A stretch of 64,000 nt of DNA from Alphaproteobacteria bacterium (lineage in GTDB: Bacteria > Pseudomonadota > Alphaproteobacteria > UBA828), in contig CBDCGS010000011.1 in assembly GCA_965216915.1 (NCBI GenBank), positions 523,230 to 587,229 on the forward strand. The letters run 5' to 3'. Below the pieces are notes generated by a model. That model saw only the letters and a program-made list of their open reading frames with translations, made no database searches and was not told the DNA's origin. Positions 4,896 through 54,218 of the stretch are shown one piece after another. Every line of letters starts with the position of its first letter. Position 1 is the first letter of the stretch. The position numbers were made by a program, and so were the translations under genes.

Positions 4896-5013
4896 CGAGC
4901 TGCCCGCGCACCGCCCGACGGTGGTGCCAAACCTCTCTCTCATTGGAATTGACGCCAGTGCGTCGTCGCAGGTGATTCCGCCTACTTGGGATTTGCTCTA
5001 GAGCGTGATCCAT

Positions 5014-5580: not shown

Positions 5581-5581
5581 G

Positions 5582-5956
5582 TCAGGTCGGTCCTGCTCGC
5601 TGGCGTGCAGGCTTTTTTTTGAAGTTGATGCCCTCGTCGTTCAACAAACGCCAAAGCGAGCCATAGCTCGCCCGCACCCCGCGCTCCTGCAGTTCCGAGA
5701 CCAACGCACGCAGCGTGATGTCCGGTGAGGCGGCGAGCCGGTCCAGCAACCAGTCGCGCTCGCCAAGCAGCAAACGCGGCAGCCGGCTGCCCATCGGCTT
5801 CGCAGCAACGCTGCCCGTCGCTCGGTAGCGCTGCGACCACTTCACAACGCTCGAAACGCTCACACCAAAGTGAGACGCAACCTCCCGAACAGGCTGACCC
5901 GCCTCAACCCGAGCAACAACACGAGAACGAAGATCCTCCGAATAGGCTCGTGCCAT
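5582..5956 (-). CDS. IS630-family transposase, N-terminal HTH part (OrfA); terminates 9 codons after an A8 run
   Basis: Helix-turn-helix N-terminus typical of IS630 (SEDLRSRVV...[21 protein letters not shown]). Minus-strand A8 at 5613-5620. Confidence 0.8.
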
Positions 5957-6049
5957 CCATACTGGCCTCCTTCTCCAGCCAGCATCTTGAATCAGTTTTC
6001 TCGCCCCTTGGGAATCCCCACAAACGATTCAACTAAACTGAATCGTGCT

Positions 6050-9197: not shown

Positions 9198-9420
9198 CGC
9201 CGCTTTCGCCTCGCGCAGAGGTAGTCCGTAGGCCGGAAGACACACCCGGCCCTTCTGCCGAATTACCACTCTGCGGGCTAAGATTTCGCTAACGCGGCGA
9301 TCGCCAGAGTCGCTGTAAACGCAAACGGAAACGAGCGTTCTGTGTCAACGGCGCCCCTGGTCAGGGAAACTCAGGACCGCGGATCCCCCGTCGGCGGCGG
9401 CAGGACCAAGCGTCGCGGGG

Positions 9421-10926: not shown

Positions 10927-12275
10927 CCAGTCGCTCCGGATGATTGGGCCGCGGCGACCGAGGGTTCGTTGCGCGCGGCGAAGAGCTGGCGAAACACCGG
11001 ATAAATGTCGGCCGGGCTCGCGATATGCTTCATCGCGAAATTGGGCCACGCCTCCTCGACGGGCTTGTAGGCTTGCCAGAGCACCGAGCCGCGCGGGCTC
11101 GACTTCAACTCATCGAGGCCGCGCTTGTCGATAATCTCGACATAGGCGTAGTACTGGCAAAGCGGCATCAGCTCCTCGGTGAGGATGCTCTGGCAGCGGC
11201 CGGCGTCGCCCGAATAGTCGTCACCGTCGGAAGCCTGGGCGCAATAGATGTTCCACTCCGAGGTGTTGTAGCGGTCGCGCACGATCTCCTGCATCTTGCG
11301 GAGTGCGGTGCTCACGACCGTGCCGCCGGTCTCGCGGGCGTAGAAGAACGTGTGCTCGTCGACCTCCTCGGCGTGATGCGTATGGCGGACGAAGACCACG
11401 TCGATCCGCTCGTAACGACGCTGCAGGAAAAGGTGGAGCAAGACGAAAAAGCGCTTCGCAAGATCCTTCTCGCGCTCGCCCATGGAGCCTGACACGTCCA
11501 TCAAGCAAAACATGACGGCGTTCGAGTTGGGCTCGGGGTGTGATTCGAACCGGTTGTAGCGAATGTCGACCGGATCGATGTAGGGCACCGTCCGGAGGCG
11601 GCGCGCCACGGTCTCGAGGAGCGCTTGCAGCGCCGCGAGCCTCTCCTCCTCTTCCGGGGTGCGCGGATCCTTCGCCTGCAGCGCCTCGATCTCGGCCCGC
11701 AGCAGGTCTTCCTCGTCCGTTTTCGGACGCCGGAGCGCGATGCGCCGGCCGAGCGCGTTGCGCATGGTACGGATCACGTTGAGGTTGGTCGGCGTGCCCG
11801 CCGTCGCAAAGCCGGCGCGGTGCGGCTTGTATTGCACCACCTCGCGCAGGCTGGTCTTCACGAGATCCGGCAGCTCCAAATCCTCGAAGAAAAGGTCGAG
11901 GAACTCCTCGCGCGAGAGCGTGAACTCGAACCCGTCCTCGCCGTCGCCCTGGTCGCTCGCCTCCTTGCCGCTTCCACCCCCGGCGCCGCCGCCGGCGGGT
12001 GGCTTCTTGATCTTGTCGCCGACCTGATACTCCTTGTTGCCGGGGAGAATCATGTCGCGCGTGCCGCCCGATTGGGCATGGCGCCACCGCGGCTCGCTGA
12101 TCCCCTTGGTCGGAATGCGAACCTGCTCGCCCGATCCCGCATCCGTGATGCTCTTCTCGGTGACGGACCGGTTGACCGCATCCTTCACAAGCGCCCGCGC
12201 GCGCCGGATGAAGCGTTGCCGGTTGCCGAGGCTCTTCTGCTTCGGGTTCCGGCGGCGGTCGATGAAAAAGGGCAT
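10923..12275 (-). CDS. YeaH/YhbH-family protein (DUF444; vWA-like)
   Basis: DUF444 signature regions (VMFCLMDVSGSM, gly-rich GGGAGGGSG). The ATG directly abuts the prkA stop (TAAATG). Confidence 0.9.
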   Translation of the reverse strand: MPFFIDRRRNPKQKSLGNRQRFIRRARALVKDAVNRSVTEKSITDAGSGEQVRIPTKGISEPRWRHAQSGGTRDMILPGNKEYQVGDKIKKPPAGGGAGGGSGKEASDQGDGEDGFEFTLSREEFLDLFFEDLELPDLVKTSLREVVQYKPHRAGFATAGTPTNLNVIRTMRNALGRRIALRRPKTDEEDLLRAEIEALQAKDPRTPEEEERLAALQALLETVARRLRTVPYIDPVDIRYNRFESHPEPNSNAVMFCLMDVSGSMGEREKDLAKRFFVLLHLFLQRRYERIDVVFVRHTHHAEEVDEHTFFYARETGGTVVSTALRKMQEIVRDRYNTSEWNIYCAQASDGDDYSGDAGRCQSILTEELMPLCQYYAYVEIIDKRGLDELKSSPRGSVLWQAYKPVEEAWPNFAMKHIASPADIYPVFRQLFAARNEPSVAAAQSSGATG

Positions 12276-14210
12276 TTAGCCGGCTTTCGAAACCCGCATG
12301 TACCACTCGACCAAGCGGCGAACCTGACGCTCGGTGTAGCCGCGATCGGTCATACGCTTGACGAAGTCGGCGTGCTTGCGGTCGGTCTCGCTGTCCTTCT
12401 TCGAGCCGAAGCTGATCACCGGCAACAGCTCCTCGACCTGGCTGAACATGCGCTTCTCGATGACGGTGCGCAGCTTCTCGTAGCTCGTCCAAGAAGGATT
12501 GGTGCCGTTGTTCTGGGCGCGCGCGCGCAGGCAGAACTTGACCACCTCGTTGCGGAAATCCTTCGGATTGGCAATGCCCGCGGGCTTCTCGATCTTTGAG
12601 AGCTCCGCATCGAGGACGGCGCGATCGAGCATCTGGCCGGTGTCGGGATCCTTGTAGTCCTGCTCCTCGATCCAAGCGTCCGCGTAGGCGATGTAGCGAT
12701 CGAACAGGTTCTGCCCATACTCGGTGTAGGACTCGAGGTAGGCCTTCTGGATCTCGTTGCCGATGAATTCCGCGTAGCGCGGCCCAAGCTCGGCCTTCAG
12801 GAACTCGAGATATTTGTTCTCGACATCCTCGGGAAATTGCTCGCGGCGCACGGCGCTCTCCAGCACGTACAAGAGGTGGACCGGATCGGCGGCCACCTCC
12901 TCGGTGTCGTGGTTGAAGGTCTCCGAGAGCACCTTGAACGCGAACCGAGTGGAAACGCCGGTCATGCCCTCGTCGACGCCCGCCGCGTCGCGATACTCCT
13001 GCATCGACTTGGCGTTGGGATCGCTGTCCTTGAGGTTCTCGCCGTCATAGATCCGCATTTTCGAGTGGAGCGACGAGTTCTCGTGCTCGTGCAGGCGGGT
13101 CAACACGGAGAAGCGGCTGAGAATGTTGAGGGTCTCGTCGGCGCAGGGCGCCTCCGCGAGCTCGCTGTCCTTGAGCAGCTTTTCGTAAATCCGCGTTTCC
13201 TCGGTGACGCGCAGGCAATAAGGCACCTTGACCACGCAGATCCGGTCGAGGAAGGCTTCGTTGTTCTTGTTGTTCTTGAACTGCTGCCACTCGGCCTCGT
13301 TGGAGTGCGCGAGCACGATGCCCTGGAAGGGGAGGCCACCGAAGGTCTCGGTGCCGACATAGTTGCCTTCCTGCGTCGCTGTGAGCAGCGGGTGCAGCAC
13401 CTTGATCGGCGCCTTGAACATCTCGACGAACTCGAGCAAGCCCTGGGTCGTGCGATTGAGGCCGCCGGAGAAGCTATAGGCGTCGGGATCGTCCTGGCTG
13501 AAGTGCTCGAGCTGGCGGATGTCGACCTTGCCGACGAGGGCAGAGACGTCTTGGTTGTTGTCATCGCCGGGTTCGGTTTTGGCGATGCCGATTTGGCGCA
13601 ACTTGGAGGGGTTCATTTTGACGACGGTGAAGCGGGACACATCGCCACCGAACTCGTCGAGGCGCTTGACCGCCCAAGGCGAGGCGCTGGCGCCGAGACG
13701 CCGCTTCGGAATGCCGTACTTCTCCTCCAGCACCGGCGCCATCTCCTCGCGATCGAAGAGACCGAGAGGTGATTCGAAAAGCGGGCTCGTTTGATCTCCG
13801 GCCTTCAGCACGTGGATCGGGTGCTTCTCCATCAGAAGCTTCAAACGCTCGGCGAGGCTCGACTTGCCGCCACCGACCGGGCCCAGCAGGTAGAGAATCT
13901 GCTTTCTTTCCTCAAGGCCCTGCGCGGCGTAGCGGAAAAAGCCGACGATGCGCTCGATGGTCTCTTCCATGCCGTGGAAGTCGCTGAACGCGGGATAGAC
14001 CTTGACGGTGCGGTTCAAAAAGATCCGGCCGAGGCGCGTGTCTTGGCTGGTATCGATGAGCTTCGGATCACCCACCGAGGCGACCATGCGCTCGGCCGCG
14101 CTCGCATACATCATCGGATCGTCGCGGCAACCGAGAAGGTAGTCTTGCAGGGTCATCTCCTCGGCTTCGTTCCGGGTGTAATACTCGGAAAAGAGATCGA
14201 TCACGTTCAT
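12276..14210 (-). CDS. prkA: PrkA-family serine protein kinase (E. coli YeaG-like), 644 aa
   Basis: Walker A LLGPVGGGKSSL and an extensive PrkA/YeaG-like sequence. The start was chosen at MNVIDLFSEYYTRNEAEEMT (ATG at 14208-14210). Confidence 0.9.
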   Translation of the reverse strand: MNVIDLFSEYYTRNEAEEMTLQDYLLGCRDDPMMYASAAERMVASVGDPKLIDTSQDTRLGRIFLNRTVKVYPAFSDFHGMEETIERIVGFFRYAAQGLEERKQILYLLGPVGGGKSSLAERLKLLMEKHPIHVLKAGDQTSPLFESPLGLFDREEMAPVLEEKYGIPKRRLGASASPWAVKRLDEFGGDVSRFTVVKMNPSKLRQIGIAKTEPGDDNNQDVSALVGKVDIRQLEHFSQDDPDAYSFSGGLNRTTQGLLEFVEMFKAPIKVLHPLLTATQEGNYVGTETFGGLPFQGIVLAHSNEAEWQQFKNNKNNEAFLDRICVVKVPYCLRVTEETRIYEKLLKDSELAEAPCADETLNILSRFSVLTRLHEHENSSLHSKMRIYDGENLKDSDPNAKSMQEYRDAAGVDEGMTGVSTRFAFKVLSETFNHDTEEVAADPVHLLYVLESAVRREQFPEDVENKYLEFLKAELGPRYAEFIGNEIQKAYLESYTEYGQNLFDRYIAYADAWIEEQDYKDPDTGQMLDRAVLDAELSKIEKPAGIANPKDFRNEVVKFCLRARAQNNGTNPSWTSYEKLRTVIEKRMFSQVEELLPVISFGSKKDSETDRKHADFVKRMTDRGYTERQVRRLVEWYMRVSKAG

Positions 14211-14312
14211 CGCTAGACCTGACCTTTCGGCGTATCGACGCCGCGGCTTGGAGCGACGCGGGGAGCGCCGCCATGTTTGGGCGGGGTGTGGACTGGTCTC
14301 CGGCAGCAACAC

Positions 14313-14744
14313 GCGCTTGCGTGTTCCCTCGAGCGGCCGGGCAGTCCCCGGTGATATGGCGCCGTCATCATGGGGTTCGTTGATTCCTCACGGCGTGCGT
14401 CGCCGCGTTCAAGAACCTGAAATGCGCACCATGTATTAGCGTCCGTTGCCTCTTAAATTAGGGTAAATATCGTTGAAAACAATAACAAATCATGAATTTC
14501 TTTCTGCAACGAAGAGTAAGTCGTTGTATTATTTCGTATATTGCGCTAGATTCCAGCAACGAGTCAGCACAATGCAACCATCGAACGAGTAGAAAAATCT
14601 CTATAATTATCAATAGATTATAAGGCGGCACGCACACAGCCGCCCCCAGCGAGCGACGCCTTAAATTTGCCGCATTTTTCTCATTATTCTCTTGGAAATA
14701 CTCGGCATGCCGCCTGGCGCCGAAATCCGGCGCGCGCGGGCGCG
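14313..14744. promoter_or_regulatory. AT-rich (low-GC) non-coding island between the hydantoinase operon 3' end and the prkA start; contains the prkA promoter and a long leader
   Basis: GC content drops abruptly (e.g. TTAAATTAGGGTAAATATCGTTGAAAACAATAACAAATCATGAATTTC) in an otherwise GC-rich region. No ORF with coding character is present. Confidence 0.4.
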
Positions 14745-17700
14745 TCAGCCGGCAGCCTCGCGCGAGCGCCCGTAGGCTTGGAGTCCCTCCGGCGTGACGA
14801 AGCCGTCCAGCAGATCCTCCCGGATGGCATCGTCATCGCGCTCTTTCGGGTCGCCCCAACCGCCACCGCCGGGCACCCGCACGAGGATCTGATCGCCGCG
14901 ATGAAGTGCGATGTTGACGAATTTCGTCGGGCTGACCGTGCCGAACACCTCCTTGAAGGTGCGGAAATCATCGTCGCCGACCCGCTTGACGAAGAACCCC
15001 GTGGGCGCGCCCGGCTGGCCACTCATGAGGCCGAAGGGCCCCTCGGTGATGCGATCCGTCAACGCGCTGACACTGACCTCGTCGGCAACCACCTCGAACT
15101 GCCGCCAGCAACCGAGGCCGCCGCGCCACTTGCCGGCGCCGCCCGAGTCCGGGCGGATCTCGTATTTGAGGACGCGTAAGGGGAAGCGGGTCTCGAACAC
15201 CTCGATCGGCGTCGCTCGGATCGTGCTCGCATGGGCGCAGCAAAGCGCGGTGTTGCCATCCTTGCCGAGCCGGCCACCCCAACCGCCACCCTCCAGCTGG
15301 TAGTGGGTCCAATAATCGCCCGTGTCCGGGTGAATACCGCCGAGCAGCAGGTTGCAGGCCGTGCCGCCCTCGGCAGCGCTCACCATCTCGGGGACGGCTT
15401 TCGCGAGCGCCTGCTGCACCGCGGCGATGATCCGCGGTTGCCCTTCGGTGTTGCCCGCGACGCTCGGCGCCGGAAACACCGGGTTCGCGACCGTTCCGGG
15501 CGGTGCGACGACGCGCAGCGGTTTAAAGCACCCGCTATTGAGCGGCACGTCGCGCGCGCAGAGCGTCTGCAGCACCGCGGTGCAGCCGGCGGCGGCCGTC
15601 GCGACATAGGTGACGTTGATTGGGCCGCGCGCCTGCTTGTCCGACTCCGAGAGGTCGACGACGATCTCCTCGTCCCGGATGTGCACGGTCGGGCGGAAAT
15701 AGTAGCGCTCGGCGGTGACCCCATCGTCCTCGAAATAATCCTCGGCCTTGTAGATGCCGTTCGGAAGCTTTCCGATCTCGCTCCGCATCCACTGCTCCGC
15801 ATGGTCGACCAGCGCGTCGCAAATTCGCTCGAAGGTCTCGATGCCCAAGCGCTCCACAAGGGCGCTGAGGCGCTGCTCGGCGGTGTTGAGCGAGCCGATC
15901 ATCGCGTGGAAGTCACCCCAGGTGGTGTTCGGCGTGCGGTGATTGGCGAGCGCGATGCGCCAGACATCCTTCACATATTCGCCGCGCGAGATCAGCTTCA
16001 CCGGCGGCAGCCGCAAGCCCTCTTGAAACACCTCCGTCGCCGTGCTCGCGAACGAGCCGACCGCCATGCCGCCGATCTCCGCGATATGCGCGATGTTCGC
16101 CGCATAGCCGACAAGCGTGTCGCCGACGAAAACCGGCTTCATCAGCAGATGCTCGGGCATGTGGCACTGACCGCGGTAGGGGTCGTTGTGAACGATCACA
16201 TCGCCCGGCTCGATCGGGTCGTCCATCTCCTTCACGCAAAGCGGCACGGTGTGGAGTCCGGCACAGATGATCGCGGGGTTCATCTCGGCCTGGCCGACCA
16301 TGCGCAGCTGCCGATCGAACAGGCAGCACGAGAAGTCGCGCGACTCGCTGAAGATGGGCGAATAGGCGGTGCGCACCATCGCGCTTTCCATCTCGTCGCA
16401 GATGTTGCCGAGCGCGTTGTTGACCACGGTCAGCGTCACCGGATCTTGCTCGGGCGCGAGCCGGCCGGTGCCGACGGCCGCGGCGGCCTGCGGGAGGCTC
16501 ACGATCAGGCTGCCGTCCGCCCCGATCTCGACCGTGCTCTGCGGCGGCACGAGCGTCGTGGAGTCCATCTCGTCGATGATCGCCGGCCCCGCGATCGTGG
16601 CGCCCGCCGCCAGCGCCGCACGGCGATAGACCGGCGTCTCGAGCGGCTCGGCGTCGTCGAAATAAACCGCGCGGTGCGCATGCGGCTCTCCCGAGCCCGT
16701 GGCCGGCGCGCGCAATCTCGCGTCGGTCTGCTCCTCGCCGCGCGCGATCACGCGCACCTCGGTCAGCTCCGCAACCTTGTCGCGGAGCGCGTAGCCATAG
16801 AGCTCCTCGTGCTGCCGGTGCAGGCCTTCGAGCGCGCGGGCGAACGCAGCCTCGTCGAGCGACAACGTGTCGAGCTGCACGAGCTCGCCGAAGTTCTGCC
16901 CCATGTAGCGCATGTTGAGGAAGCCGGTCACCGTCGCGTCACCCGCCAGACCGTCGCGCTTCAGCTCCGCGACCGCCTCGTGGGCCAGGGTCTCGAGCTG
17001 CCCATTCAAGGCGGCGAGATCGACCGTGTCCGAGCGATGGTTGACGGTGCGGGCCCGGTCAACCCGCAGGTCGGTGAGCAGCGTGCCGAGCGCCGAGCAG
17101 AGGCCGGGATGCGGCGGGACCACCACCTTCCGCATGTCGAGCGGCGCCGCGACGTCGACCGCATGCAGCGGTCCGGCGCCGCCGAAGGCGATCAGCGCAT
17201 AGTCGCGATGGTCGATCCCGCGCTCGACGGTCATGAGCCGGATGGCGTCGGCCATGTTCTCGGCCGCCGTTTCGAGGATCGCGCGCGCGGTTTCCACCGC
17301 CGTGAGGCCGAGCTCCTTGCCGAGCCCGCCCACGGCCTCGTGAGCGCGGGCCGCATCCAACCTCATCTCGCCGCCGAGAAAGTAGTCGGGATCGAGCCTG
17401 CCGAGCACCACGTTCGCGTCCGTCACCGTCGGCTCGGTGCCGCCGCGCCCGTAGCAGGCCGGACCCGGGTCGGCGCCCGCGCTGCGCGGGCCGACCCGCA
17501 GCAAGCCACCGACATCGACGTAAGCGATCGAGCCGCCGCCCGCGCCGATGGTCGTGTAGTCGATGAAGAGCGCGCTCACCGGCACACCCCATTCAACCTC
17601 ATATTCCGTCGTGGAGCCGAAAGCGCCGTCGGTGATGAGCCCGACGTCGCAGCTGGTGCCGCCCATGTCGAGCGTGACGCCATTGCCGTCCGCGTGATCC

Positions 17701-45558: not shown

Positions 45559-46095
45559 TTAGGCCGCCTCGGTGAATGCCCGCTCCTTCACATGGGCAAG
45601 CATGGTGTCGGCGTCGGAGACCTCGAACGGATCATCCTCGACATTGTCGCCGAGCCCCGGCTCGACGAACATTTGCGTGATCTCACCGTCCTCCACCAGC
45701 ATCGAATAGCGCCAGCTGCGGTAGCCGAAACCGAGATTGTCCTTGTCGACGAGCATGCCCATGAGGCGTGTGAACGTTGCCGAGCCGTCGGGCAGCATCG
45801 TCACCTTCTCGACGCCGAGCGAGCCCGCCCAGCGGAACATGACAAAGGCATCGTTCACGGCGAGGCAGATCACCTCGTCGACCCCGGCATCGATGAACGC
45901 ATCGTGGAGTTCCTCGAAGCGGGGGAGATGGGTCGAGCTGCAGGTCGGCGTGAAAGCGCCCGGCAGGGCGAATACGACCACGCGCCGGCCGTCAAAAATC
46001 TCGGATGAGCGCCGGTCCTGCCAGCGGAAAGGGTTCGGGCCCTCCACGCTTTCGTCACGGACACGGGTTTTGAACACGACATCGGGGACACGCAT
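45559..46095 (-). CDS. Peroxiredoxin, Prx5-like (AhpC/TSA family thiol peroxidase)
   Basis: Peroxidatic Cys motif PGAFTPTCS. RBS GGGAGG precedes the ATG at 46095. Confidence 0.85.
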   Translation of the reverse strand: MRVPDVVFKTRVRDESVEGPNPFRWQDRRSSEIFDGRRVVVFALPGAFTPTCSSTHLPRFEELHDAFIDAGVDEVICLAVNDAFVMFRWAGSLGVEKVTMLPDGSATFTRLMGMLVDKDNLGFGYRSWRYSMLVEDGEITQMFVEPGLGDNVEDDPFEVSDADTMLAHVKERAFTEAA

Positions 46096-46116
46096 GGCGA
46101 GGCCTCCCATTTTCCG

Positions 46117-46152
46117 ATAATTGCTGCTATTCCTTATTTAGAATCGTTCTAA
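46117..46152. promoter_or_regulatory. Candidate OxyR-type (LysR) operator upstream of the peroxiredoxin: ATAA-N6-CTAT-N7-TTAG-N7-CTAA, including the palindrome TAGAATCGTTCTA
   Basis: Four half-site-like elements at ~10-11-bp spacing, 22-57 bp upstream of the prx start codon, inside an AT-rich divergent region. Confidence 0.35.
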
Positions 46153-46422
46153 TGTTTGACAAGGCCTGTGACCCACATTTTTTCGCGCCCCGGCCCCTGC
46201 AGGCTGATCCGCCGACCGTCAAACGCCCGCCTTTGACGGTAGAAGATCGCTCCTAAATTTTCCAAAACATATAAATAATTACAATAGAAACTTGCACGAT
46301 CAATCCTTTATTATTGGATTTTCTCGAAGCGATTTATTGAATTCGGGCAGCTATCATGACAATACGGCCACGTGAATACCGAACTTACTTGAGACCTTGA
46401 ACATCGATCGGGTGCTACGTTA

Positions 46423-46548
46423 ATGGGCAACATATTCATGGCCGTCATCGCACTCTTCAGTGTTCTCGCCGTCAGCGTCGCGGTCGTGTACATGATTGCG
46501 ACCGGCACATTTCCGACGAGCCTCGACGCGCTGATGGACATGTTCTAG
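46423..46548 (+). CDS. Unannotated 41-codon micro-ORF encoding a hydrophobic single-TM peptide (MGNIFMAVIALFSVLAVSVAVVYMIATGTFPTSLDALMDMF)
   Basis: ATG...TAG ORF immediately upstream of hyuA in the AT-rich leader; below the ORF-track length cut-off. Confidence 0.3.
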   Translation: MGNIFMAVIALFSVLAVSVAVVYMIATGTFPTSLDALMDMF

Positions 46549-46671
46549 GCGGCCGGTCCGGCGAAAACGGCCGGCTCCGGCCCTCGGGCCGCGCTGGCAC
46601 GCGCCAAGTGGCTCGACGTGGCCGCGGTTTCACCCCAATATCTGCGCTCTGTGAAACCGGCGGGGCCGAGA

Positions 46672-48774
46672 ATGACTGGTGACGAGCGCGCACGGATCGG
46701 CGTGGATATCGGCGGCACCTTCACCGATGTGGTGCTGGAGCGCGCCGGTGCGCGCTTCACGGCGAAGGTGCTGACCACGCCCCAGGCGCCCGAGGACGGC
46801 GTGCAAAACGGCCTTTCGCGCGTCATGGACCAGGCCGGCGTCACTCCCGACGCGGTTTCCCTGGTGATTCACGGCACCACCCTCGCGACCAACGCCCTGA
46901 TTGAGCGCAAGGGCGCGAAAACGGCGCTCATCACCACCGAGGGTTTTCGTGATTCAATTGAAATGGGCACCGAAAGCCGCTTCGAGCAATACGACATCTA
47001 CATGGAAAAGCCGACACCGCTCGTGCCACGGCACCTGCGCGTGCCGGTGGCCGAGCGGCTCAACGCAGCCGGCGAGGCGGTGCTACCGCTCGACGAGGCT
47101 AGGCTGCGCGCGGTCGCGGGCGAGCTGGCGAGCGCCGGCGTGGAGAGCATCGCGATCGGCTTTCTCCACAGTTATGTGAACCCGGCGCACGAGGAACGCG
47201 CGAGAGAGATTCTGAGCGAAGTCCTCCCTGACGTGCCGACGTCGCTCTCCTGCGAGGTGGCGCCGGAAATGCGCGAATATGAGCGCTTCTCGACCGCCTG
47301 CGCGAACGCCTATGTCCAGCCGGTGATGGCGCGATACCTGAAGCGGCTGGAAGCGCAGCTCCGCACCCAGGGCTTCGACTGCCCGCTGTTCGTGATGTTG
47401 TCGGGCGGCGGCGTGACCGATATCGAGACCGCCGTGCGCTTCCCTATCCGCCTCGTCGAATCGGGTCCGGTGGGGGGCGCGGTGTTCGCGAGCGACGTTG
47501 CCAAGCGATCAGACCTCGATCGCGTGCTCTCGTTCGACATGGGCGGCACGACGGCGAAGATCTGCTTCATCGACAATGCGCAGCCGCAAACGGCGCGCAG
47601 CTTCGAGGTCGCCCGCGCGCACCGCTTCCTCAAGGGTAGCGGGTTGCCGCTGCGCATCCCCGTGATCGAAATGGTCGAGATCGGCGCAGGTGGCGGGTCG
47701 ATCGCCAAGGTCGATCAGCTCGGCCGTATCACGGTCGGCCCGGAGAGCGCAGGCGCCGACCCCGGCCCGGCCTGTTATGGCCAGGGCGGCACAGCACCGG
47801 CGGTGAGCGATGCCGATGTCGCGCTCGGCCGCATCGACCCCGACGCATTTTCGGGCGGCCGCATCGCCCTCGACGCGGATGCCGCGGCGCAGGCGCTCGG
47901 GCGCGACGTCGGCGAGGCACTCGGCCTCGAGCCTCGCATCGCCGCGCTTGGCATCAGTGAAATGGTCGATGAGAACATGGCGAGCGCCGCGCGCGTGCAT
48001 GCGATCGAGATCGGCGCAACACTTGGCGAGCGCACCATGATCGCCTTTGGTGGCGCCGCGCCCCTGCATGCCGCGCGGCTCGCCGAAAAGCTCGAGATGG
48101 ACCGGGTGATCGTGCCGACCTCCGCCGCGGTTGGCTCGGCGGTGGGCTTCCTGCGCGCGCCGGTGGCCTACCAAGTCATCCACACCGCCTACCAAACCCT
48201 TTCGACATTCGATCCCGCCGCGGCAAACCGCGCGCTCGACGCGATGCGTGCCGAAGCCGAGGCCATCGTCGCGCGCGGCGCGCCTGGCGAGCCCACGGAG
48301 GAAACGCGCACCGCGTTCATGCGCTATCTCGGGCAGGGTCACGAGGTGCCGGTCCCGCTGCCGGTGCGGACATGGCAAGCCAGCGATACGGCGCTCATCC
48401 GTGACGCGTTCGAGGAGGCCTACGAACGGCTCTACGGGCGTATCATCCCGGAGCTCGATCTCGAGATCGTGAGCTGGTCCGTTCAGGTGGCGGCCGTTCC
48501 CTCCGTCACGGCCGCGAACGGCGCGGGTATCGTCGCCTCAACGCCGGCGGCGCACGGGACCCGGCAAGTCTTGGATCCCGGCCGCGGCGGGCTGGTCGAT
48601 GCCGCCCTATACCGGCGCGAAGACCTGTCCGCAGGCGCACGCATCGAGGGGCCGGCGCTGATCCTGGAGACCGACACCACGACGGTGGTGAGCGCGGCAT
48701 TTGCCGCAGCCGTGGACGCGCAAGGGTTCATCGTGATGGAGCGGCGCACAGAAAATACCGGAGACAGCCCATGA
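46672..48774 (+). CDS. Hydantoinase A / N-methylhydantoinase A-like (HyuA; oxoprolinase family beta-type subunit)
   Basis: N-terminal motif IGVDIGGTFTDVVL and an extensive Hydantoinase_A-like sequence. Start is either ATG 46672 or GTG 46618. Confidence 0.9.
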   Translation: MTGDERARIGVDIGGTFTDVVLERAGARFTAKVLTTPQAPEDGVQNGLSRVMDQAGVTPDAVSLVIHGTTLATNALIERKGAKTALITTEGFRDSIEMGTESRFEQYDIYMEKPTPLVPRHLRVPVAERLNAAGEAVLPLDEARLRAVAGELASAGVESIAIGFLHSYVNPAHEERAREILSEVLPDVPTSLSCEVAPEMREYERFSTACANAYVQPVMARYLKRLEAQLRTQGFDCPLFVMLSGGGVTDIETAVRFPIRLVESGPVGGAVFASDVAKRSDLDRVLSFDMGGTTAKICFIDNAQPQTARSFEVARAHRFLKGSGLPLRIPVIEMVEIGAGGGSIAKVDQLGRITVGPESAGADPGPACYGQGGTAPAVSDADVALGRIDPDAFSGGRIALDADAAAQALGRDVGEALGLEPRIAALGISEMVDENMASAARVHAIEIGATLGERTMIAFGGAAPLHAARLAEKLEMDRVIVPTSAAVGSAVGFLRAPVAYQVIHTAYQTLSTFDPAAANRALDAMRAEAEAIVARGAPGEPTEETRTAFMRYLGQGHEVPVPLPVRTWQASDTALIRDAFEEAYERLYGRIIPELDLEIVSWSVQVAAVPSVTAANGAGIVASTPAAHGTRQVLDPGRGGLVDAALYRREDLSAGARIEGPALILETDTTTVVSAAFAAAVDAQGFIVMERRTENTGDSP

Positions 48775-50519
48775 CGGCCTCCCAGAGCGCGCTCGAGCGC
48801 ATCCAGACCCAGATCATGTGGAACCGCTTGATCGCGGTCGTCGAGGAGCAGGCGCAAACGCTGCTGCGAACCGCGTTCAGTACCACGGTCCGCGAGGCCG
48901 GCGATCTCTCGGCCGGCGTGTTCGACGTCGAGGGGCGGATGCTGGCGCAGGCCGTTACCGGCACCCCGGGGCACGTCAACTCGATGGCGGTCTCGGTGAA
49001 GCACTTCCTCGAACGCTATCCCAACGAAGAGATGCGCGAGGGCGACGTCTTCATCACCAACGACCCTTGGCTCACCTGCGGGCATCTTCACGACCTCACC
49101 GTCGTGACCCCGGTCTTCAAGAAAGGCCGCATCATCGGGTCATTCGCCTGCACGGCCCATATCGTCGATATCGGCGGGCGCGGGTTTGGGCCGGACGCGC
49201 GCTCGGTGTTCGAGGAGGGCCTCTACATTCCGATCATGCCGCTTGCGCGCGAAGGGCGGATCAATCGGGACCTGCTCGAGATGGTGCGATGGAACGTGCG
49301 AGAGCCACTTCAGGTCGAAGGGGACATCTTCTCCCTGATCGCCTGCAACCGCGAGGGCGCGCGCCGGCTCAACGCGATGATGGACGAGTTCAGCCTCGAC
49401 GACTTGCAGGCGCTCGCTGACGACATCATCACCCGCTCACGCGAGGCCACGCTGACAGCCATCCGCGCACTACCCTTCGGCACTTACCGCCATTCCCTCA
49501 CGATGGACGGCTATAACGAGCCCATCGACCTCGTCGCCGCGACGACAATCAGCGAGGACGGCATCCACACCGATTTTGAGGGCACCTCGCCGGCGAGCAA
49601 TCACGGCATCAACGTCGTGCTCAACTACACGACCGCCTACACCAGCTTCGGTGTGAAATGCATCGTCGCCAAGGACGTGCCCAACAATGCCGGCTCGCTG
49701 AGCCCGATCACGGTTTCGGCGCCTGAAGGCTCCATTCTCAACGCACCACGGCCTTGGCCGGTCGCCTCGCGCCATGTCATCGGCCACCTGCTGCCCGATT
49801 TGGTATTCGGCTGCCTGCACCAGGCGATCCCCGGACAGGTGCCTGCGGAAGGCGCGGCCTCGCTGTGGATCGTCCAGCTCCGGGGCGGCGCGACGGCGGT
49901 CGATGCCGAGGCGCGCCGGAACTCGGAGATCGACTGGCCGGAGTTCGAAATCGCGCTCTTCAACTCGGGCGGTGCGGGGGCGCGGCCGAAGCGTGATGGC
50001 CTGTCGACGACGGCGTTTCCGAGCGGCGTGCGCACGATGCCGGTGGAGGCCTCTGAGACCGTGGCGCCGATCGTCATCTGGCGCAAGGAGATGGCGCGCG
50101 ACAGCGGCGGCGCGGGTGAATTGCGCGGCGGGCTTGGCCAGGTGATGGAAATCGCCGGCGCGGAGGGTGCGCCCTTCAGCGTGCTGGCTCAGTTCGAGCG
50201 CATCGACCATCCGGCCCGCGGCCGCGCGGGCGGCGGCAACGGCGCACCCGGGGCCATCGCGCTCGCCTCCGGCACGCGCCTGCGTGGCAAAGGCCAGCAG
50301 ACCATCCCGACCCACGACCGGCTTCGCTTGGCGCTCCCCGGCGGCGCCGGCTATGGCGATCCGTTTGCCCGTGACGCGACGGCGGTTGCGGACGACGTCC
50401 TGAACGACCTGGTCACGCCGGAGACCGCGCGCCGCGACTATGGGGTCGTGGTCTCCGCCGACGGCACGATCGACGAGGCGGCCACCGCAGCGCTTCGTGG
50501 CGGCGGCGCCAAGTCCTAG
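48771..50519 (+). CDS. Hydantoinase B / oxoprolinase-like (HyuB), coupled to HyuA by an ATGA overlap
   Basis: Hydantoinase_B-like sequence (DPWLTCGHLHD, FNSGGAGARP). Confidence 0.9.
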   Translation: MTASQSALERIQTQIMWNRLIAVVEEQAQTLLRTAFSTTVREAGDLSAGVFDVEGRMLAQAVTGTPGHVNSMAVSVKHFLERYPNEEMREGDVFITNDPWLTCGHLHDLTVVTPVFKKGRIIGSFACTAHIVDIGGRGFGPDARSVFEEGLYIPIMPLAREGRINRDLLEMVRWNVREPLQVEGDIFSLIACNREGARRLNAMMDEFSLDDLQALADDIITRSREATLTAIRALPFGTYRHSLTMDGYNEPIDLVAATTISEDGIHTDFEGTSPASNHGINVVLNYTTAYTSFGVKCIVAKDVPNNAGSLSPITVSAPEGSILNAPRPWPVASRHVIGHLLPDLVFGCLHQAIPGQVPAEGAASLWIVQLRGGATAVDAEARRNSEIDWPEFEIALFNSGGAGARPKRDGLSTTAFPSGVRTMPVEASETVAPIVIWRKEMARDSGGAGELRGGLGQVMEIAGAEGAPFSVLAQFERIDHPARGRAGGGNGAPGAIALASGTRLRGKGQQTIPTHDRLRLALPGGAGYGDPFARDATAVADDVLNDLVTPETARRDYGVVVSADGTIDEAATAALRGGGAKS

Positions 50520-52126
50520 GCTTCGCCCTCGGTTTCGACCACGAAGCAGTCGATCCCGCGGCCGCGCAGCGCGGCGCATTGCTCGCGCGCCACGGTCTCG
50601 CTCGTCGGCGTCGTGCGCAGCCGGTAGAAAACGCCCTTCTCGGGACCGAGATCCGCACGCGCCACATCCGGCTTCTGGCCGACGAAGAGATCCGGCGCCA
50701 TTGACTGTAGCTCGCTCCAGGCTTCGAGGGCGCCCTCGTGACTGCGGCGTGCGACGAGCTGCACCTGATATCCGCCGGCTGGCAGCGCCTGCGGCGCGGC
50801 GCCGCCCAACGCAGCGGGTGCGAGTTGCGGCAGCGGGACGCGGGACGCGGGCTTCGCGGCCACGGTGGCCGCCGCATCGGCGTTGGGCCGCGCCGGTGCC
50901 GGCCTTGCGGCGGACGGGGCGGCGGTGGGCTGCGGCGAGACCTCCTCCTGCGTCGCGTTGTTCGAAGCCGCAGGCGATGGCTCGGCGGTGTCGGCAGCGG
51001 CTTGCACGATTGGCTGCGCCTCGGCCGGGGGCTTGGGCGCGGCGTAGGCGACCGGCACCATGGCGGCGGGATCTTCACGCCATGCGGGCGCCGGCTCGGC
51101 CTGCGCCACCACGGGCTCGTCCGACGTCGGCTCGACGGGAGCGACGGCCGCGGGAGCGGGCTCGGGGTCGGGCGCCATCGTCGTTGGGGCGCTCACGGCC
51201 GCGGTTTGCCGGGGGCGCGGGTCTGCCGTCGGCGCGGCGGGTTCAGCAGGTTCGGCGGACAATGGCTGGACGCGAACCGCCTCCGCCGGCGCAGGCGTGC
51301 CCTGCTCCGGCTCCGCGGCTGCGGTTTGCCGCGGGCTGGCCCGGCGTTCGCTAAGCGCTGAGTAGAACGCAATGTTGGCGGCCACCTCCTCCTCGGAAAG
51401 GTCCAGGGCGGCGACTTTCTCGGCGGCTTCACGATCGCCGGCGAGGCCCAGCGCCAGAGCCAAGTTCTGGCGGGTGCGCGCGGTCGCATACGGAGATTTG
51501 GCGGCCTTCGTGAGAACCGCGATCGCCTCGCTCACCTGACCCGACAGAGCAAGCGAGAGACCATAGTTGTTGTTTAGCGAGATGTTATCGGGCCGCATCC
51601 GAAGGCCCACGCGATAGCTCTCTTGCGCCTCGCTATGGCGGCTCAACAGATCGAGCGCAACACCACGGCCATTGAGAGCCCGATGATCTTCGGGCACTTC
51701 AGCGAGGAGCGTGTCGTAGACCTCCAGCGCCTCGTCGCCGCCGCTCATGCCGATCAGGCTGCTGCCCAACCCAAACATGATCTCCCGCCGGTTGGGCGGA
51801 TTGACGGCAAGCGCCCGCCGATAGGCATGCACGGCATCGGCATGGGCACCCCTCATGGCGTGGGCGCGGGCCAGCCCAACCAGCGGCTCAGGTGCGGAGG
51901 GATCGCTCTCGTGGGCGGCTTGATAGATTTGCGCCGCGTTTTCCGCTTTGCCGTTGGCCATCGCGATGTCGGCGATGCGGAGAAGACTGTTTGTGTCGCC
52001 GTCGCGCTCGGACACTTGCGAGTCCGGCGCGGTGTTCATGTTCGCGCAGGCGGCAAGCACGATCATGGCGGAGGCAACGGCGGCAGCCGACCGAAGCCGA
52101 CCTCGAACCCAACGAGTGGCGATCAT
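50516..52126 (-). CDS. TPR-repeat lipoprotein with a Pro/Ala-rich linker and a C-terminal SPOR (peptidoglycan/septum-binding) domain
   Basis: Lipobox LAAC; several TPR-like helices (AIAVLTKAAKSPYA...); SPOR-like C-terminus (GGYQVQLVARRSHEGALEAWSELQS...FYRLR). Confidence 0.75.
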   Translation of the reverse strand: MIATRWVRGRLRSAAAVASAMIVLAACANMNTAPDSQVSERDGDTNSLLRIADIAMANGKAENAAQIYQAAHESDPSAPEPLVGLARAHAMRGAHADAVHAYRRALAVNPPNRREIMFGLGSSLIGMSGGDEALEVYDTLLAEVPEDHRALNGRGVALDLLSRHSEAQESYRVGLRMRPDNISLNNNYGLSLALSGQVSEAIAVLTKAAKSPYATARTRQNLALALGLAGDREAAEKVAALDLSEEEVAANIAFYSALSERRASPRQTAAAEPEQGTPAPAEAVRVQPLSAEPAEPAAPTADPRPRQTAAVSAPTTMAPDPEPAPAAVAPVEPTSDEPVVAQAEPAPAWREDPAAMVPVAYAAPKPPAEAQPIVQAAADTAEPSPAASNNATQEEVSPQPTAAPSAARPAPARPNADAAATVAAKPASRVPLPQLAPAALGGAAPQALPAGGYQVQLVARRSHEGALEAWSELQSMAPDLFVGQKPDVARADLGPEKGVFYRLRTTPTSETVAREQCAALRGRGIDCFVVETEGEA

Positions 52127-52186
52127 TGAAAACGTCCTGGGCGTTGTTGCGCGGCTGGATCATCTCGCCGGCCGCGCGCATAGGCG

Positions 52187-52696
52187 CTAATTACCGATCG
52201 GCAGGACGTCCAGAAAGAACATGGTTAGGAAAAGGAAAATTAGATAACAAGAGGTGTACAAAAGCACATCCGACCACGAAAGAGCCCGGCGCTTTGGGCT
52301 GGGTGCTACGATGTCGGACAAATCGTCGAGCGTCTCTGCCTCGGTCGATCCTGGGTCGTCCGGATCGGAGACCGAGAGGGCGGCCTCGGCCGCGAGCGTC
52401 TCGACCGGCGGTTCTGGAACCTCAAGGTCGTCTGCGGCCACCTGCGGCGTGTCGGCCTTGTCGCTCTTAGGTATCTCGATCGTGGCCTTTGCCGCACCCG
52501 GCTGCGAGGCGGCCGCCGGCGTGCGGGTGCGCTTTATCATGGCGCCGGTGAGCGAAGCGGCGGGCTTCTGAAGATCCTCGGCGTTGCCGGTCTTCGACGC
52601 TTCGACGCCGGTTTCGCCCTCGGCGGGCACCGGATCTGGCTGAGAAAGCGATGCGGCTTTCCCGGTCGGCAAGGCTTTGGCGGAGTCGGCAGCCAT
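52187..52696 (-). CDS. Hypothetical acidic, Pro/Ala-rich (disordered) protein with a single C-terminal TM segment (tail-anchored)
   Basis: Low-complexity N-terminus and C-terminal hydrophobic LLYTSCYLIFLFLTMFFLDVL. The start was chosen at MAADSAK; it lies 5 nt after the RHH gene stop. Confidence 0.45.
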   Translation of the reverse strand: MAADSAKALPTGKAASLSQPDPVPAEGETGVEASKTGNAEDLQKPAASLTGAMIKRTRTPAAASQPGAAKATIEIPKSDKADTPQVAADDLEVPEPPVETLAAEAALSVSDPDDPGSTEAETLDDLSDIVAPSPKRRALSWSDVLLYTSCYLIFLFLTMFFLDVLPIGN

Positions 52697-52701
52697 CGGG
52701 C

Positions 52702-53094
52702 CTATTCCCTTGCGCTCTTGCGCTTGAGGTCGAACGGCGAGCTCAGGCAGTCGCAGGTGGCGTCGCACACCTGCAAGGCAACCTCATCGAGATGCCGATC
52801 GAGCGCTTCGACCAGAATGTCCTGCATGCTCTTTCGCAAAAGCGTGCTCGCGAGACGCAGGCGCTGGTGAGTATCGCGATCGAGCTTGACGGATGCTTTG
52901 ACGCGGTTATCACGCCGAGACCCCAGGCCCAACCGTTGTTTGCCCCTGTGTGCCAGAAGCGGGAACTGAATCGCCGGAGGCGTTGCGACATCGTCGGCCC
53001 GCAAGCGCCGATCGGGGCCGAATGTCGACGGCAGCGCGCCGCCCTTGGCCGCGAGGAGCGTGCTGGCGAGATGATCCGCATCGCCTTGGCTCAA
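52702..53094 (-). CDS. Small putative ribbon-helix-helix DNA-binding protein (ParG-like partner of the ParA ATPase); TTG start overlapping the ParA stop
   Basis: Predicted beta-strand-helix-helix region KASVKLDRDTHQRLRLASTLLRKSMQDILVEALDRHL; translationally coupled (TTGA). Confidence 0.45.
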   Translation of the reverse strand: MSQGDADHLASTLLAAKGGALPSTFGPDRRLRADDVATPPAIQFPLLAHRGKQRLGLGSRRDNRVKASVKLDRDTHQRLRLASTLLRKSMQDILVEALDRHLDEVALQVCDATCDCLSSPFDLKRKSARE

Positions 53095-53876
53095 CGGTAG
53101 GCCCTCGCACGCTCAGCGGTGGTAGGGTCCTCAACGGACTCGCCCGTTGCATCGTCCGTCGTGCCGTCGGGCGAGACGGGAACGTCCTCACTCGGGGAAA
53201 GCGCGGTTTCAAGCTGGCGAATGGTGTGCCCGGTCGGAAGCCGCTTATCACCGATCGACTTGCCGAGCTGCTGCGCCACATAGGCCCAGAGCTCCTCGAT
53301 TTCGGCGGCGGAGCGTTCCGCCTTGGGAAGCTCCATGACGGTCCGCCCATCGATCATGCTGGCGGCGAAATCCGTCCGCTGGTGAACGATGGCGGGCGCA
53401 ACGGTGCCATGCTGCGAGAGCGCGATGGCGGCCTCGCCCGTGATGCGTGCGCGGGCCGAGGCGCCGTTGACCACGAAGACCAGCCGCTTGTCGAGTTGCT
53501 CCACCAACTCCACGGTCGCCCCGGCGGCGGAAAGATCGTGCGGGCTTGGGCGCACGGGAATGATGACCAGATCGGCGCAGCGCACGACCTCGACGATCGT
53601 CGTCGTGATGGCCGGCGGCGTGTCGATGACCACGAGCTCGATGCCCTTTTCGGCGAGTTCTGCGAGGGCATCGGGCAGCTGAGAAACATAGGTGCGCGCG
53701 AAGACGGGCGTGTCGACGGGGCGCGCGTTCCACCACACCGACAGACTGCCCTGCGGATCGGTGTCGACCAGCGCGACCGGGCCGGCGCCCGCCCGCTCGG
53801 CTTGTACTGCCAAATGGCCGCATAGGGTCGTCTTGCCCGATCCGCCCTTCTGCGATGTCACCGCTATTACCTGCAT
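53091..53876 (-). CDS. ParA/MinD-family ATPase (small type-Ib ParF-like), orphan (no ParB)
   Basis: Deviant Walker A SQKGGSGKTT; motifs DTDPQGS and VIDTPP. RBS GAGGTGG 5 nt upstream of the ATG. Confidence 0.85.
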   Translation of the reverse strand: MQVIAVTSQKGGSGKTTLCGHLAVQAERAGAGPVALVDTDPQGSLSVWWNARPVDTPVFARTYVSQLPDALAELAEKGIELVVIDTPPAITTTIVEVVRCADLVIIPVRPSPHDLSAAGATVELVEQLDKRLVFVVNGASARARITGEAAIALSQHGTVAPAIVHQRTDFAASMIDGRTVMELPKAERSAAEIEELWAYVAQQLGKSIGDKRLPTGHTIRQLETALSPSEDVPVSPDGTTDDATGESVEDPTTAERARAYR

Positions 53877-53930
53877 AGGTTCCACCTCGCCCCACGGCCT
53901 GAGGGCCTGGCCAATTTCCGCAAAATCGTC

Positions 53931-53970
53931 AACTAAGCTAGCTTGTGGTTGCTAAGTTTTCGCTAGTGAC
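53931..53970. promoter_or_regulatory. Candidate operator / partition-site-like motif cluster upstream of the ParA gene: perfect 10-bp palindrome AAGCTAGCTT plus repeated GCTAAG/GCTAG half-sites
   Basis: Sequence AACTAAGCTAGCTTGTGGTTGCTAAGTTTTCGCTAGTGAC, 55-95 bp upstream of the parA-like start. Confidence 0.3.
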
Positions 53971-54218
53971 TTCCGGTGATTTTCGAAAATTGTCTCCAGA
54001 AGGCGAAATTAAGCTGTCAGTTCGCACGATGTTTCTTTAAAAATTCTTACCAAGCAGCAGTTAACCCTTCGTGCGCTGCGCGGATGCGTGCCGGAGCGGC
54101 GCGCCTGGCACCCCAGTACACTTCGTTGACAACCCGCAACACCCGAGACTGAATCGGGCGAAGGAGGCCGGCTGCCCCGAGCCGATGGGGAGCCGCGACA
54201 TGGAACGAGGAGCACATC

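Follow-up and report, generated by a model that had tools for sequence, protein, structure and literature searches.

Why is a ParA ATPase of the plasmid-partition type encoded on a large alphaproteobacterial contig, next to a tail-anchored protein and a lipoprotein with a SPOR domain? This question is raised by four closely spaced, co-directional genes on the minus strand (positions 50516-53885) of the DNA analyzed here, a 64,000-nt stretch of a 1.79-Mb contig, hereafter called the window. In gene order, they encode a small ParA, a protein with an N-terminal tail and a ribbon-helix-helix (RHH) domain (gene 2), an acidic tail-anchored protein (gene 3) and a TPR-SPOR lipoprotein (gene 4). ParA/MinD ATPases are the main positioning engines of bacteria, and SPOR domains, such as those of FtsN, DamX, DedD and RlpA, bind the denuded glycans that are enriched at septa. 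The homology of both proteins assigns the ParA/RHH pair to the type Ib partition systems of plasmids. The cluster recurs across alphaproteobacterial orders, and a short peptide is shared by DNA-binding and membrane-anchored proteins encoded next to ParA. The module may have been rewired from plasmid partition to the cell envelope, a reading that we hold to have an even chance of being right.

Organization of the four-gene cluster

A preliminary description, made from the sequence of the window, had reported the four minus-strand genes. All the open reading frames (ORFs) are present, and every detail that could be checked is accurate. ParA carries the deviant Walker A sequence that had been pointed out (KGGSGKTT, in the context SQKGGSGKTT, with Walker A beginning at residue 10) and overlaps gene 2 by 4 nt, the TTG start of gene 2 overlapping the ParA stop codon (TTGA). 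Gene 3 follows after 5 nt, and gene 4 after a further 60 nt. Their described properties, an acidic Pro/Ala-rich protein with a single C-terminal transmembrane (TM) helix and a TPR-SPOR lipoprotein, are borne out by the values in Table 1. When promoters and terminators were sought, no terminator was detected within the cluster and no sigma-70 consensus upstream of parA, where a CtrA box is likewise absent. Given the tight packing and the lack of a terminator, the four genes are probably co-transcribed.

Conservation of the cluster in Alphaproteobacteria

When ParA was used as the query of a word-index search, 7959 proteins matched at E<=1e-20, of which the best 120 share 63-80% identity with it and come mostly from alphaproteobacterial metagenomes. 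A pattern scan of one genome per GTDB species confirmed at least 591 loci with a ParA relative, and the locus statistics given below rest on the best 80 of these genome loci. Their hosts include Stellaceae, Sneathiella, Kiloniellales, Kordiimonas, Parvibaculaceae, Sphingomonadales, Rhodospirillaceae, Pelagibius and Inquilinaceae, among others, and several of the 80 loci belong to contigs or chromosomes that are 1-5 Mb long. With gene 2 as the query, the word-index search gave the self-match only, and the orthologues of this gene were therefore traced by synteny and by purpose-built hidden Markov models (HMMs). HMMs for the partner, SPOR, the TPR region and the PAS-like domain were built from the loci and then mapped onto all of them.

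A motif-bearing partner is encoded directly downstream of ParA in 71 of the 77 loci with at least 600 nt after ParA. Downstream sequence of at least 2.5 kb is available for 71 loci, and 43 of these encode a SPOR protein in the same direction within 3.4 kb; the other 356 kb of flanks contain not a single SPOR match. The closest relative, L088 (ParA 76% identical), shows an identical four-gene order within wholly different flanks. What is conserved is the cluster itself, since the genes around it change from one genome to the next. Synteny in related genomes, proposed earlier as a check on the grouping of these genes, is thus found. The arrangement recurs across alphaproteobacterial orders, far beyond chance.

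In a neighbor-joining tree, which has no bootstrap and only seven plasmid sequences and is to be read as indicative, all 88 chromosomal ParAs group in a single clade that excludes the seven from plasmids. Sub-clades of ParA coincide with the gene-architecture classes described below. One metagenome-assembled genome, KW1-S21_141, has two contigs (L016 and L018) that each carry a ParA of the family, an observation that either paralogy or a binning artefact could explain. On two complete chromosomes of Parvibaculaceae, the locus is found at ~95% of the record (L051, 3.51/3.69 Mb; L065, 3.44/3.61 Mb), a position that would be origin-proximal if the records begin at dnaA.

A short peptide shared by DNA-binding and membrane proteins

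The candidate interaction peptide of the family comprises 16 residues, with the consensus ASLTxxLLARKGxAxP. The best match of its position-specific scoring matrix (PSSM) anywhere in the window is the N-terminus of gene 2. A permissive regular expression gave 55 matches in the 2.09 million six-frame residues of all loci, and ~44 of these fall at the N-terminus of the gene immediately after ParA. Positions outside the expression (the G, A and P of ..RKGxAxP) are conserved in 32, 32 and 30 of the 32 distinct training instances, respectively. The conserved basic pair (R-K in the consensus) is represented by K17 in gene 2 of the window and by K55/R56 in gene 3. The same peptide heads the RHH partners of plasmids, the RHH partners of chromosomes and bitopic SPOR proteins (class B, see below).

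Gene 3 contains a variant of the motif (KPAASLTGAMIKR). A 13-mer PSSM was trained solely on RHH and class-B partners, with 1665 ORFs as the control. All eight tail-anchored gene-3 proteins (8/8) score above the 99th percentile of the controls, with a null fraction of 0.0018 for the window protein. With the full 16-mer PSSM, the gene-3 proteins are not significant, and the 13-mer core is significant for the tail-anchored class only. PAS-like gene-3 proteins carry a looser element (ASLxxhxhRR) at the equivalent place, which is significant only sometimes. By analogy with the partners of other ParA/MinD ATPases (PMC11407121), it is reasonable to regard the peptide as a candidate ParA-contact, ATPase-stimulating element. 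Gene 3 is proposed to be a second, membrane-anchored ParA adaptor.

Relationship to type Ib partition systems

The profile of the ParA family matches the structures of TP228 ParA/ParF (5u1g, 4dzz) over the full length (positions 1-199), with an E-value of about 4e-21. The structures of Soj, McdA and MinD match around the P-loop only. In an alignment of 24 ParA sequences with 60-70% identity, the catalytic residues are invariant (K10, G11, G12, G14, K15, D38, D40 and D85). Pfam gives matches to AAA_31, CbiA and VirC1, and the NCBIfam equivalog NF041546 (ParA_partition) scores 173.1 bits, just under its curated cutoff of 180. From around residue 206, the C-terminal tail is acidic and variable, unlike the amphipathic helix of MinD (no helix-prediction program was used).

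Taken alone, gene 2 gives a weak RHH signal in Pfam (RH3_dom, E=0.049), and neither gene 2 nor gene 3 belongs to a Pfam or NCBIfam family. A profile of 20 gene-2 orthologues matches RHH structures only, namely E73 (1.5e-5), TP228 ParG (1p94, 1.1e-3), omega and CopG, and this supports the earlier assignment of an RHH-like segment to the 130-aa protein.

Outside the chromosomal clade, the nearest relatives of the pair are partition cassettes of plasmids. ParA is matched (tblastn) by 3425 plasmid records of PLSDB, the best of which, with 55-64% identity, are from Comamonas, Deefgea, Methylomonas, Acidiphilium, Xanthomonas (pXCV19) and E. coli. In all seven plasmids inspected (7/7), the gene after ParA encodes a small "hypothetical" protein in which an N-terminal tail precedes an RHH domain and which bears a gene-2-type motif. 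Examples are MSKTASLTSGLVAKKGQAAP in Deefgea, KASSLSAGLIAKKGQAVP in Comamonas and KKPAALSADLVAVKGAAVP in Defluviicoccus, to be compared with HLASTLLAAKGGALP in the window. A replication-initiator gene is annotated in the fetched stretch of five of the seven. The stretch of the Lichenicola plasmid has a DnaB-like helicase gene only, and that of pXCV19 has no annotated rep.

On the homology of both proteins, the ParA/RHH pair is of type Ib, ParF/ParG-like and of plasmid-partition ancestry. It shows the small ParA (about 200-260 aa) without an N-terminal helix-turn-helix and the downstream partner with a tail and RHH that characterize this type. Its location is not that of a plasmid system: the source contig measures 1.79 Mb, orthologues are found on contigs of 1-5 Mb and, as had been stated before, no rep gene or obvious plasmid context is present, the flanks tested being free of rep, mob and integrase genes. 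The preliminary description had spoken of an orphan ParF/ParG-like pair. The likeness to ParF/ParG stands; the word orphan is appropriate only in part, as the RHH protein is the cognate type Ib partner.

Several other assignments were considered and rejected. A chromosomal ParABS system (type Ia), with its parS sites (not sought genome-wide here), would require a ParB partner of the HTH/CTPase kind, the 130-aa RHH protein having no ParB family match in Pfam or NCBIfam, in agreement with the earlier remark that ParB is missing. The Pfam family MipZ covers residues 6-44 (the P-loop) only. The scores for MinD are 26 bits against 212.9 (TIGR01968) and 14.6 against 508 (PRK10818). BcsQ reaches 59.9 bits against 157.85, and no cellulose genes occur in the flanks. 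VirC1 gives 29.1 bits against an NCBIfam cutoff of 313, and genes of a type IV secretion system (T4SS) are absent from the flanks. Two systems that combine an ATPase with a TPR protein were also dismissed: Tad/Cpa (TadZ and the TPR lipoprotein TadD), by the absence of Tad genes from the flanks, and Bcs (BcsQ and the TPR protein BcsC), by the family score and the absent neighbor genes. Gene 4 is not FtsN, with 17.2 bits against cutoffs of 300 (NF050813) and 107.65 (TIGR02223).

Architecture classes and SPOR linkage

The loci can be divided into classes A to D. Class A, found in Sphingomonadales and others, consists of ParA, the RHH protein and a TPR+SPOR lipoprotein, usually with a divergent gene for a secreted Sel1+SPOR protein 1-2 kb upstream. 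In Sphingomonadales, this Sel1-repeat+SPOR gene lies, for example, at 4658-5836 of L057 and at 7187-8248 of L071, both on the minus strand. In Kordiimonas, a Sel1+SPOR gene is located between the RHH and TPR-SPOR genes, on the opposite strand.

In class B (18 loci, including Parvibaculaceae and Pelagibius), ParA is followed by a single bitopic protein composed of the N-terminal motif, an often-acidic linker, a TM helix, a Pro/Ala linker and SPOR. This partner has no RHH domain. An example of such an N-terminus is MSKKPAPLTSDLLVRKGEATPSS. SPOR was confirmed by Pfam in six related SPOR-class proteins tested. The class-B proteins were rejected as FtsN orthologues: of five that were tested, four reach 23-49 bits on NF050813 (cutoff 300), and that of L068 gives no NCBIfam match. 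In L046 (4691-6496), L058, L060 and L066, an extra conserved periplasmic segment of ~90 aa (VDVVRLEPSGEAVIAGRA...GDWVF.P...L..G.H.F.LV) is inserted between the TM helix and SPOR and resembles a beta-sandwich module. On an Inquilinaceae chromosome (L030, 6714-7139), the gene after ParA encodes 141 aa with the N-terminal motif and a TM helix, and neither RHH nor SPOR. The product is a predicted minimal membrane adaptor.

Class C (25 loci, 22 of them among the 80 genome loci) includes Sneathiella and Stellaceae (e.g., L001, 9263-10060; L003, 1851-2474). Here, ParA and the RHH protein are followed by a protein with a Pro/Ala-rich N-terminal part and a PAS_5-like C-terminal domain. The likeness of this domain to PAS_5/DUF1457 is weak (Pfam E=0.0025-0.022), and the protein is cytoplasmic. 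Standing in place of the tail-anchored protein, it may be a third kind of ParA client. Three Kiloniellales loci of this class (L019, L024 and L043) add a TPR+SPOR gene downstream.

Class D comprises the window and its relatives, with ParA, RHH and the tail-anchored acidic protein, with or without TPR+SPOR. Gene-3 orthologues with the same C-terminal TM segment are found in L088, L089, L090, L004, L012, L028 and L048. A TPR+SPOR gene is oriented divergently upstream in L004; at this place, L090 encodes only a TPR lipoprotein of 269 aa, in which SPOR was not detected. L012, L028 and L048 have no SPOR gene in their flanks. Just downstream, on the other strand, a gene of L090 codes for a protein with Sel1-like repeats but no SPOR, and a 304-aa gene occupies this position in L004. 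Only near relatives of the window have the exact four genes that include a tail-anchored gene 3; other lineages have variant architectures. Orthologous TPR+SPOR lipoproteins are encoded downstream of ParA/RHH in ~27 other loci, and lipoboxes occur in most gene-4 orthologues. As the TPR-SPOR and Sel1-SPOR proteins bear lipoprotein or Sec signals, they are periplasmic.

Upstream region and candidate operator

ParA shares a divergent intergenic region with a potF-like gene. Besides a perfect 12-bp palindrome, it contains several TTTCG/TTTGCG boxes. K-mer counts gave suggestive ATTTGC/TTTCG boxes only, and a repeat finder detected weak repeats only, with no clear repeat array. An alignment of the upstream regions of five relatives revealed no solid conserved block. 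The plasmid relatives have strong palindromes just upstream of parA, at the same place as the candidate in the window: ACGCAAATACGTATTTGCGT in Deefgea (L086, about 2350-2430) and AAGCACGCATGCGTGCTT in Xanthomonas and E. coli (L092/L093, about 2400-2460). In the chromosomal L088 (about 5890-5950), GGGTATTTGC occurs twice (GGGTATTTGCGTC and GGGTATTTGCCGC) and resembles the Deefgea half-site. The operator type may have been inherited together with the genes.

Features and surroundings of the locus

The features of the locus are collected in Table 1. The mechanical ParA ORF (53091-53885) begins at GTG 53885. ATG 53876 is the more likely start, because a GAGGTG Shine-Dalgarno sequence lies upstream of it and a 261-aa database protein (P0003) starts there. 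The TTG start of gene 2 is well supported, since no alternative in-frame start exists 5' of the conserved N-terminal motif. Downstream of the RHH domain, gene 2 carries a C-x-C motif (consensus G-x-C-x-C-L). Most chromosomal partners have it; those of plasmids and of Sphingomonadales lack it. Four such cysteines would meet in an RHH dimer and could form a metal, Fe-S or redox site. Among the four proteins of the locus, gene 3 has the highest Kyte-Doolittle mean over 19 residues (2.23). The linker of gene 4 consists of 51% Pro+Ala. Its lipobox was judged by eye with the pattern [LVI][ASTVI][GAS]C.

Table 1. Coordinates of the genes, domains and sites of the ParA locus in the window.
Feature	Position	Strand	Description and evidence
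ParA/ParF-type small ATPase	53091-53876	-	261 aa from ATG 53876; Pfam, NCBIfam, structure profile
Gene 2, ParG-like partner	52702-53094	-	130 aa; N-terminal flexible tail and C-terminal RHH
Gene 2, N-terminal partner motif	53029-53073	-	Residues 8-22, HLASTLLAAKGGALP
Gene 2, RHH DNA-binding domain	52783-52905	-	Residues 64-104; orthologue alignment and HMM matches to E73, ParG, omega, CopG, PutA
Gene 2, C-x-C motif (C114, C116), 3' of RHH	52747-52755	-	Orthologue alignment
Gene 3, acidic Pro/Ala-rich tail-anchored protein	52187-52696	-	169 aa; isoelectric point 4.23; 27% Pro+Ala
Gene 3, TM helix VLLYTSCYLIFLFLTMFFL	52211-52267	-	Residues 144-162; ~7 residues follow
Gene 3, variant partner motif KPAASLTGAMIKR	52529-52567	-	Residues 44-56; 13-mer PSSM
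Gene 4, TPR-SPOR lipoprotein	50516-52126	-	536 aa; Pfam TPR families and SPOR
Gene 4, signal peptide and lipobox LAAC (Cys27)	52046-52126	-	MIATRWVRGRLRSAAAVASAMIVLAAC, by eye
Gene 4, TPR repeats	about 51407-52009	-	TPR_16 E=2.4e-16, TPR_2 E=7.9e-14
Gene 4, SPOR domain (PF05036)	50537-50779	-	Residues 450-530; 29.2 bits, gathering cutoff 21
Divergent intergenic region shared with potF-like gene	53877-54218	.	Candidate operator/centromere-like site for the RHH protein
Palindrome ATTTTCGAAAAT	53979-53990		Perfect, 12 bp; upstream of ParA

The neighbors of the locus encode hydantoinase A/B, a peroxiredoxin and ABC transporters. The GC content is 0.58-0.63 in positions 1-15000 of the window, with a dip to 0.578 at 14-15 kb. 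It dips to 0.578 also at 46-47 kb (46001-47000), and the remainder of the window has 0.65-0.70. At positions 4580-4618, two CtrA-box-like sites (TTAA-N7-TTAA) lie 24 nt apart, one perfect and one with a single mismatch. In the window, 0.68 such sites are expected by chance, and they have no relation to the ParA locus.

Proposed mechanism and alternatives

The ParAs of plasmid type Ib systems coat the nucleoid. We favor, at an even chance, the reading that a type Ib module was domesticated on the chromosome and rewired to the envelope at this locus, and that its ParA works with DNA-bound and membrane adaptors, is coupled to septal-peptidoglycan binders and serves as a HubP-like landmark or positioning system. 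In such a module, ParA-ATP dimers would coat the nucleoid. The shared peptide would be the ATPase-activating contact, so that one ParA could be addressed by two kinds of adaptor. The DNA adaptor would be bound through its RHH domain, probably at an operator-like site upstream of parA, and the second adaptor would be fixed in the inner membrane and present the same peptide. This membrane adaptor would be tied to septal or denuded peptidoglycan, directly by SPOR fusion in other lineages and indirectly, through the co-transcribed TPR-SPOR lipoprotein, in the window. Held in place where the cell divides or at the new pole, it would act as a landmark that captures ParA or locally discharges it, and would orient the ParA-driven positioning of RHH-marked DNA relative to the closing septum. 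The whole would be a HubP/TipN-like arrangement made from a plasmid partition kit. A bolder proposal is that many Alphaproteobacteria possess an unrecognized machine for nucleoid-to-septum coupling, in which one peptide serves two adaptor classes, bound to a chromosomal site or spanning the membrane and fixed by SPOR. The septum or new pole would then steer the DNA, or the nucleoid would steer an envelope complex. This proposal is tentative, and we consider it rather unlikely.

Several observations weigh against the rewired, envelope-coupled module. Its weakest step is the connection between the tail-anchored protein and the TPR-SPOR lipoprotein in the window, where the former exposes only ~7 periplasmic residues. 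The motif of gene 3 is a variant and lies away from the extreme N-terminus of the window protein, and the link between the peptide and ParA is drawn from position, conservation and analogy. No nearby SPOR gene is present in 28 of the 71 loci with enough downstream sequence (~40%). In 22 of the 80 genome loci, a cytoplasmic PAS_5-like protein is the product of the third gene, and SPOR is not fixed in every version of the module. In class A, the Sphingomonadales type, no membrane-spanning adaptor was detected, and gene order alone joins the cytoplasmic and periplasmic parts. The upstream site is a candidate only, suggestive of an RHH operator or centromere, and the tree of ParAs is, as mentioned, indicative.

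The pair may instead be a plain chromosomal type Ib system that positions its own centromere-bearing region, with gene 3 and the SPOR protein as passengers or neighbors. Its homology to working plasmid partition cassettes would suit such a role, as would the palindrome and box-like sequences upstream of parA and the many ParA-RHH loci without any SPOR gene. However, a system acting on DNA only cannot account for the 18 RHH-less loci, whose sole motif-bearing partner is a TM-SPOR protein. It also leaves unexplained the SPOR linkage (43/71 loci, compared with none in 356 kb) and the motif of gene 3, and we regard it as unlikely. Type Ib RHH partners, such as TP228 ParG, repress their own operons, and ParA proteins act in the autoregulation of plasmid par operons. 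It is therefore conceivable, if improbable, that the RHH protein represses an envelope operon (SPOR, TPR, Sel1), with ParA as co-repressor or nucleotide switch and with no spatial role. The tightly packed, probably co-transcribed genes without a terminator and the similarity of the gene-2 RHH domain to ParG-type repressors agree with this regulatory function. It fails to explain why a ParA-contact motif is found on membrane and SPOR proteins that do not bind DNA, or why the class-B loci do without the RHH protein.

A decaying remnant of the partition cassette of an integrated plasmid or integrative and conjugative element, next to a SPOR gene by chance, had been named in the preliminary description as the case that would undo its proposal, and this explanation is essentially refuted. 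Close plasmid homologues do exist, and the flanking genes differ in every genome examined. Against decay, no ORF is disrupted, and the catalytic residues do not vary. A single clade unites the chromosomal copies, with sub-clades that track gene architecture, and at least 591 genomes carry a relative, on contigs of up to 5 Mb. The flanks tested contain no rep, mob or integrase gene, and the SPOR association is recurrent. The plasmid ancestry is real, yet the pair has the marks of a maintained, SPOR-linked chromosomal system.

Comparison with known systems

TP228 ParF/ParG and the other type Ib plasmid systems (pTAR-like) resemble the module in the small ParA without an N-terminal DNA-binding domain and in a downstream partner that combines a flexible N-terminal tail with a C-terminal RHH. 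Homology is detectable for both proteins, and the plasmid relatives with 55-64% ParA identity have a partner motif identical to that of the module. In contrast to them, the module is chromosomal, lacks replicon genes and has the extra C-x-C after RHH. Its peptide is found also on membrane, SPOR and PAS-like proteins, and its linkage to periplasmic SPOR proteins is persistent. VirC1/VirC2 of Ti plasmids likewise combine a ParA-like ATPase with an RHH partner, VirC2 having the RHH fold, and bring a nucleoprotein complex to an envelope machine. Pfam VirC1 matches the N-terminal half of ParA (E=5.4e-7); however, no T4SS or relaxosome genes are located near the module. The class-B proteins share with FtsN, DedD and DamX a short cytoplasmic N-terminus, a TM helix, a Pro-rich linker and SPOR, but their cytoplasmic end is the ParA-partner peptide and not a DNA-binding or FtsA-binding segment.

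By analogy, HubP is the closest functional precedent. HubP of Vibrio is a highly acidic, single-TM landmark with a peptidoglycan-binding LysM domain and TPR repeats, which binds ParA1, ParC and FlhG (PMC8789113). The likeness lies in a single-pass membrane protein that is fixed by a periplasmic peptidoglycan-binding domain and engages ParA-like ATPases through an acidic cytoplasmic part, and the acidic cytoplasmic linkers (gene 3, class B) and TPR repeats of the module fit this logic. There is no sequence homology to the HubP/FimV landmarks or to TipN-ParA of Caulobacter, and the module uses SPOR instead of LysM. Compared with HubP, the topology is opposite, with a cytoplasmic N-terminus, and the proteins are small, have one short peptide instead of large repeat arrays and share an operon with a dedicated ParA. 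In Bacteroidetes, HU-CCDC81-TM-SPOR/LysM proteins have been proposed as nucleoid-envelope anchors (PMC5499826). PomXYZ of Myxococcus xanthus is described as the exceptional ParA/MinD system with two ATPase-activating partners, and it resembles the proposed module in this respect, in its nucleoid-associated ATPase and in its link to the division site (PMC13170346). Its partners have no sequence relationship to those of the module, PomXY forms a cytoplasmic cluster without a membrane or peptidoglycan anchor, and no RHH protein is involved.

Significance

The module has partners of a kind not described for any ParA. In agreement with the earlier statement that the system is not a described one, literature searches of incomplete coverage found no description of a ParA-SPOR or orphan alphaproteobacterial ParA system, and Pfam and NCBIfam hold none. 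A 2024 review lists chromosomes, plasmids, the divisome, carboxysomes, flagella, chemoreceptor arrays, conjugation machinery and pili as cargos of ParA/MinD ATPases, and it makes no mention of peptidoglycan (PMC11407121).

If the proposed mechanism is true, the module would define a new class of ParA partner, in which the peptide is grafted onto membrane proteins that bind septal peptidoglycan. It would also be a clear case of a plasmid partition kit recruited to host cell biology. On the bolder proposal given above, the activating partner would read the state of the cell wall, a first among ParA/MinD systems. The system is tractable: the proteins are small, and nature offers variants that have or lack RHH, that carry SPOR as a fusion or on its own, or that use PAS-like adaptors. 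Culturable carriers are found in Sphingomonas, Novosphingobium, Kordiimonas, Sneathiella and Pelagibius. To our knowledge, the coordination of the nucleoid with constriction is still partly open in orders without Min or classical nucleoid-occlusion proteins. The module would provide a handle on how Alphaproteobacteria coordinate their nucleoid with constriction and pole formation.

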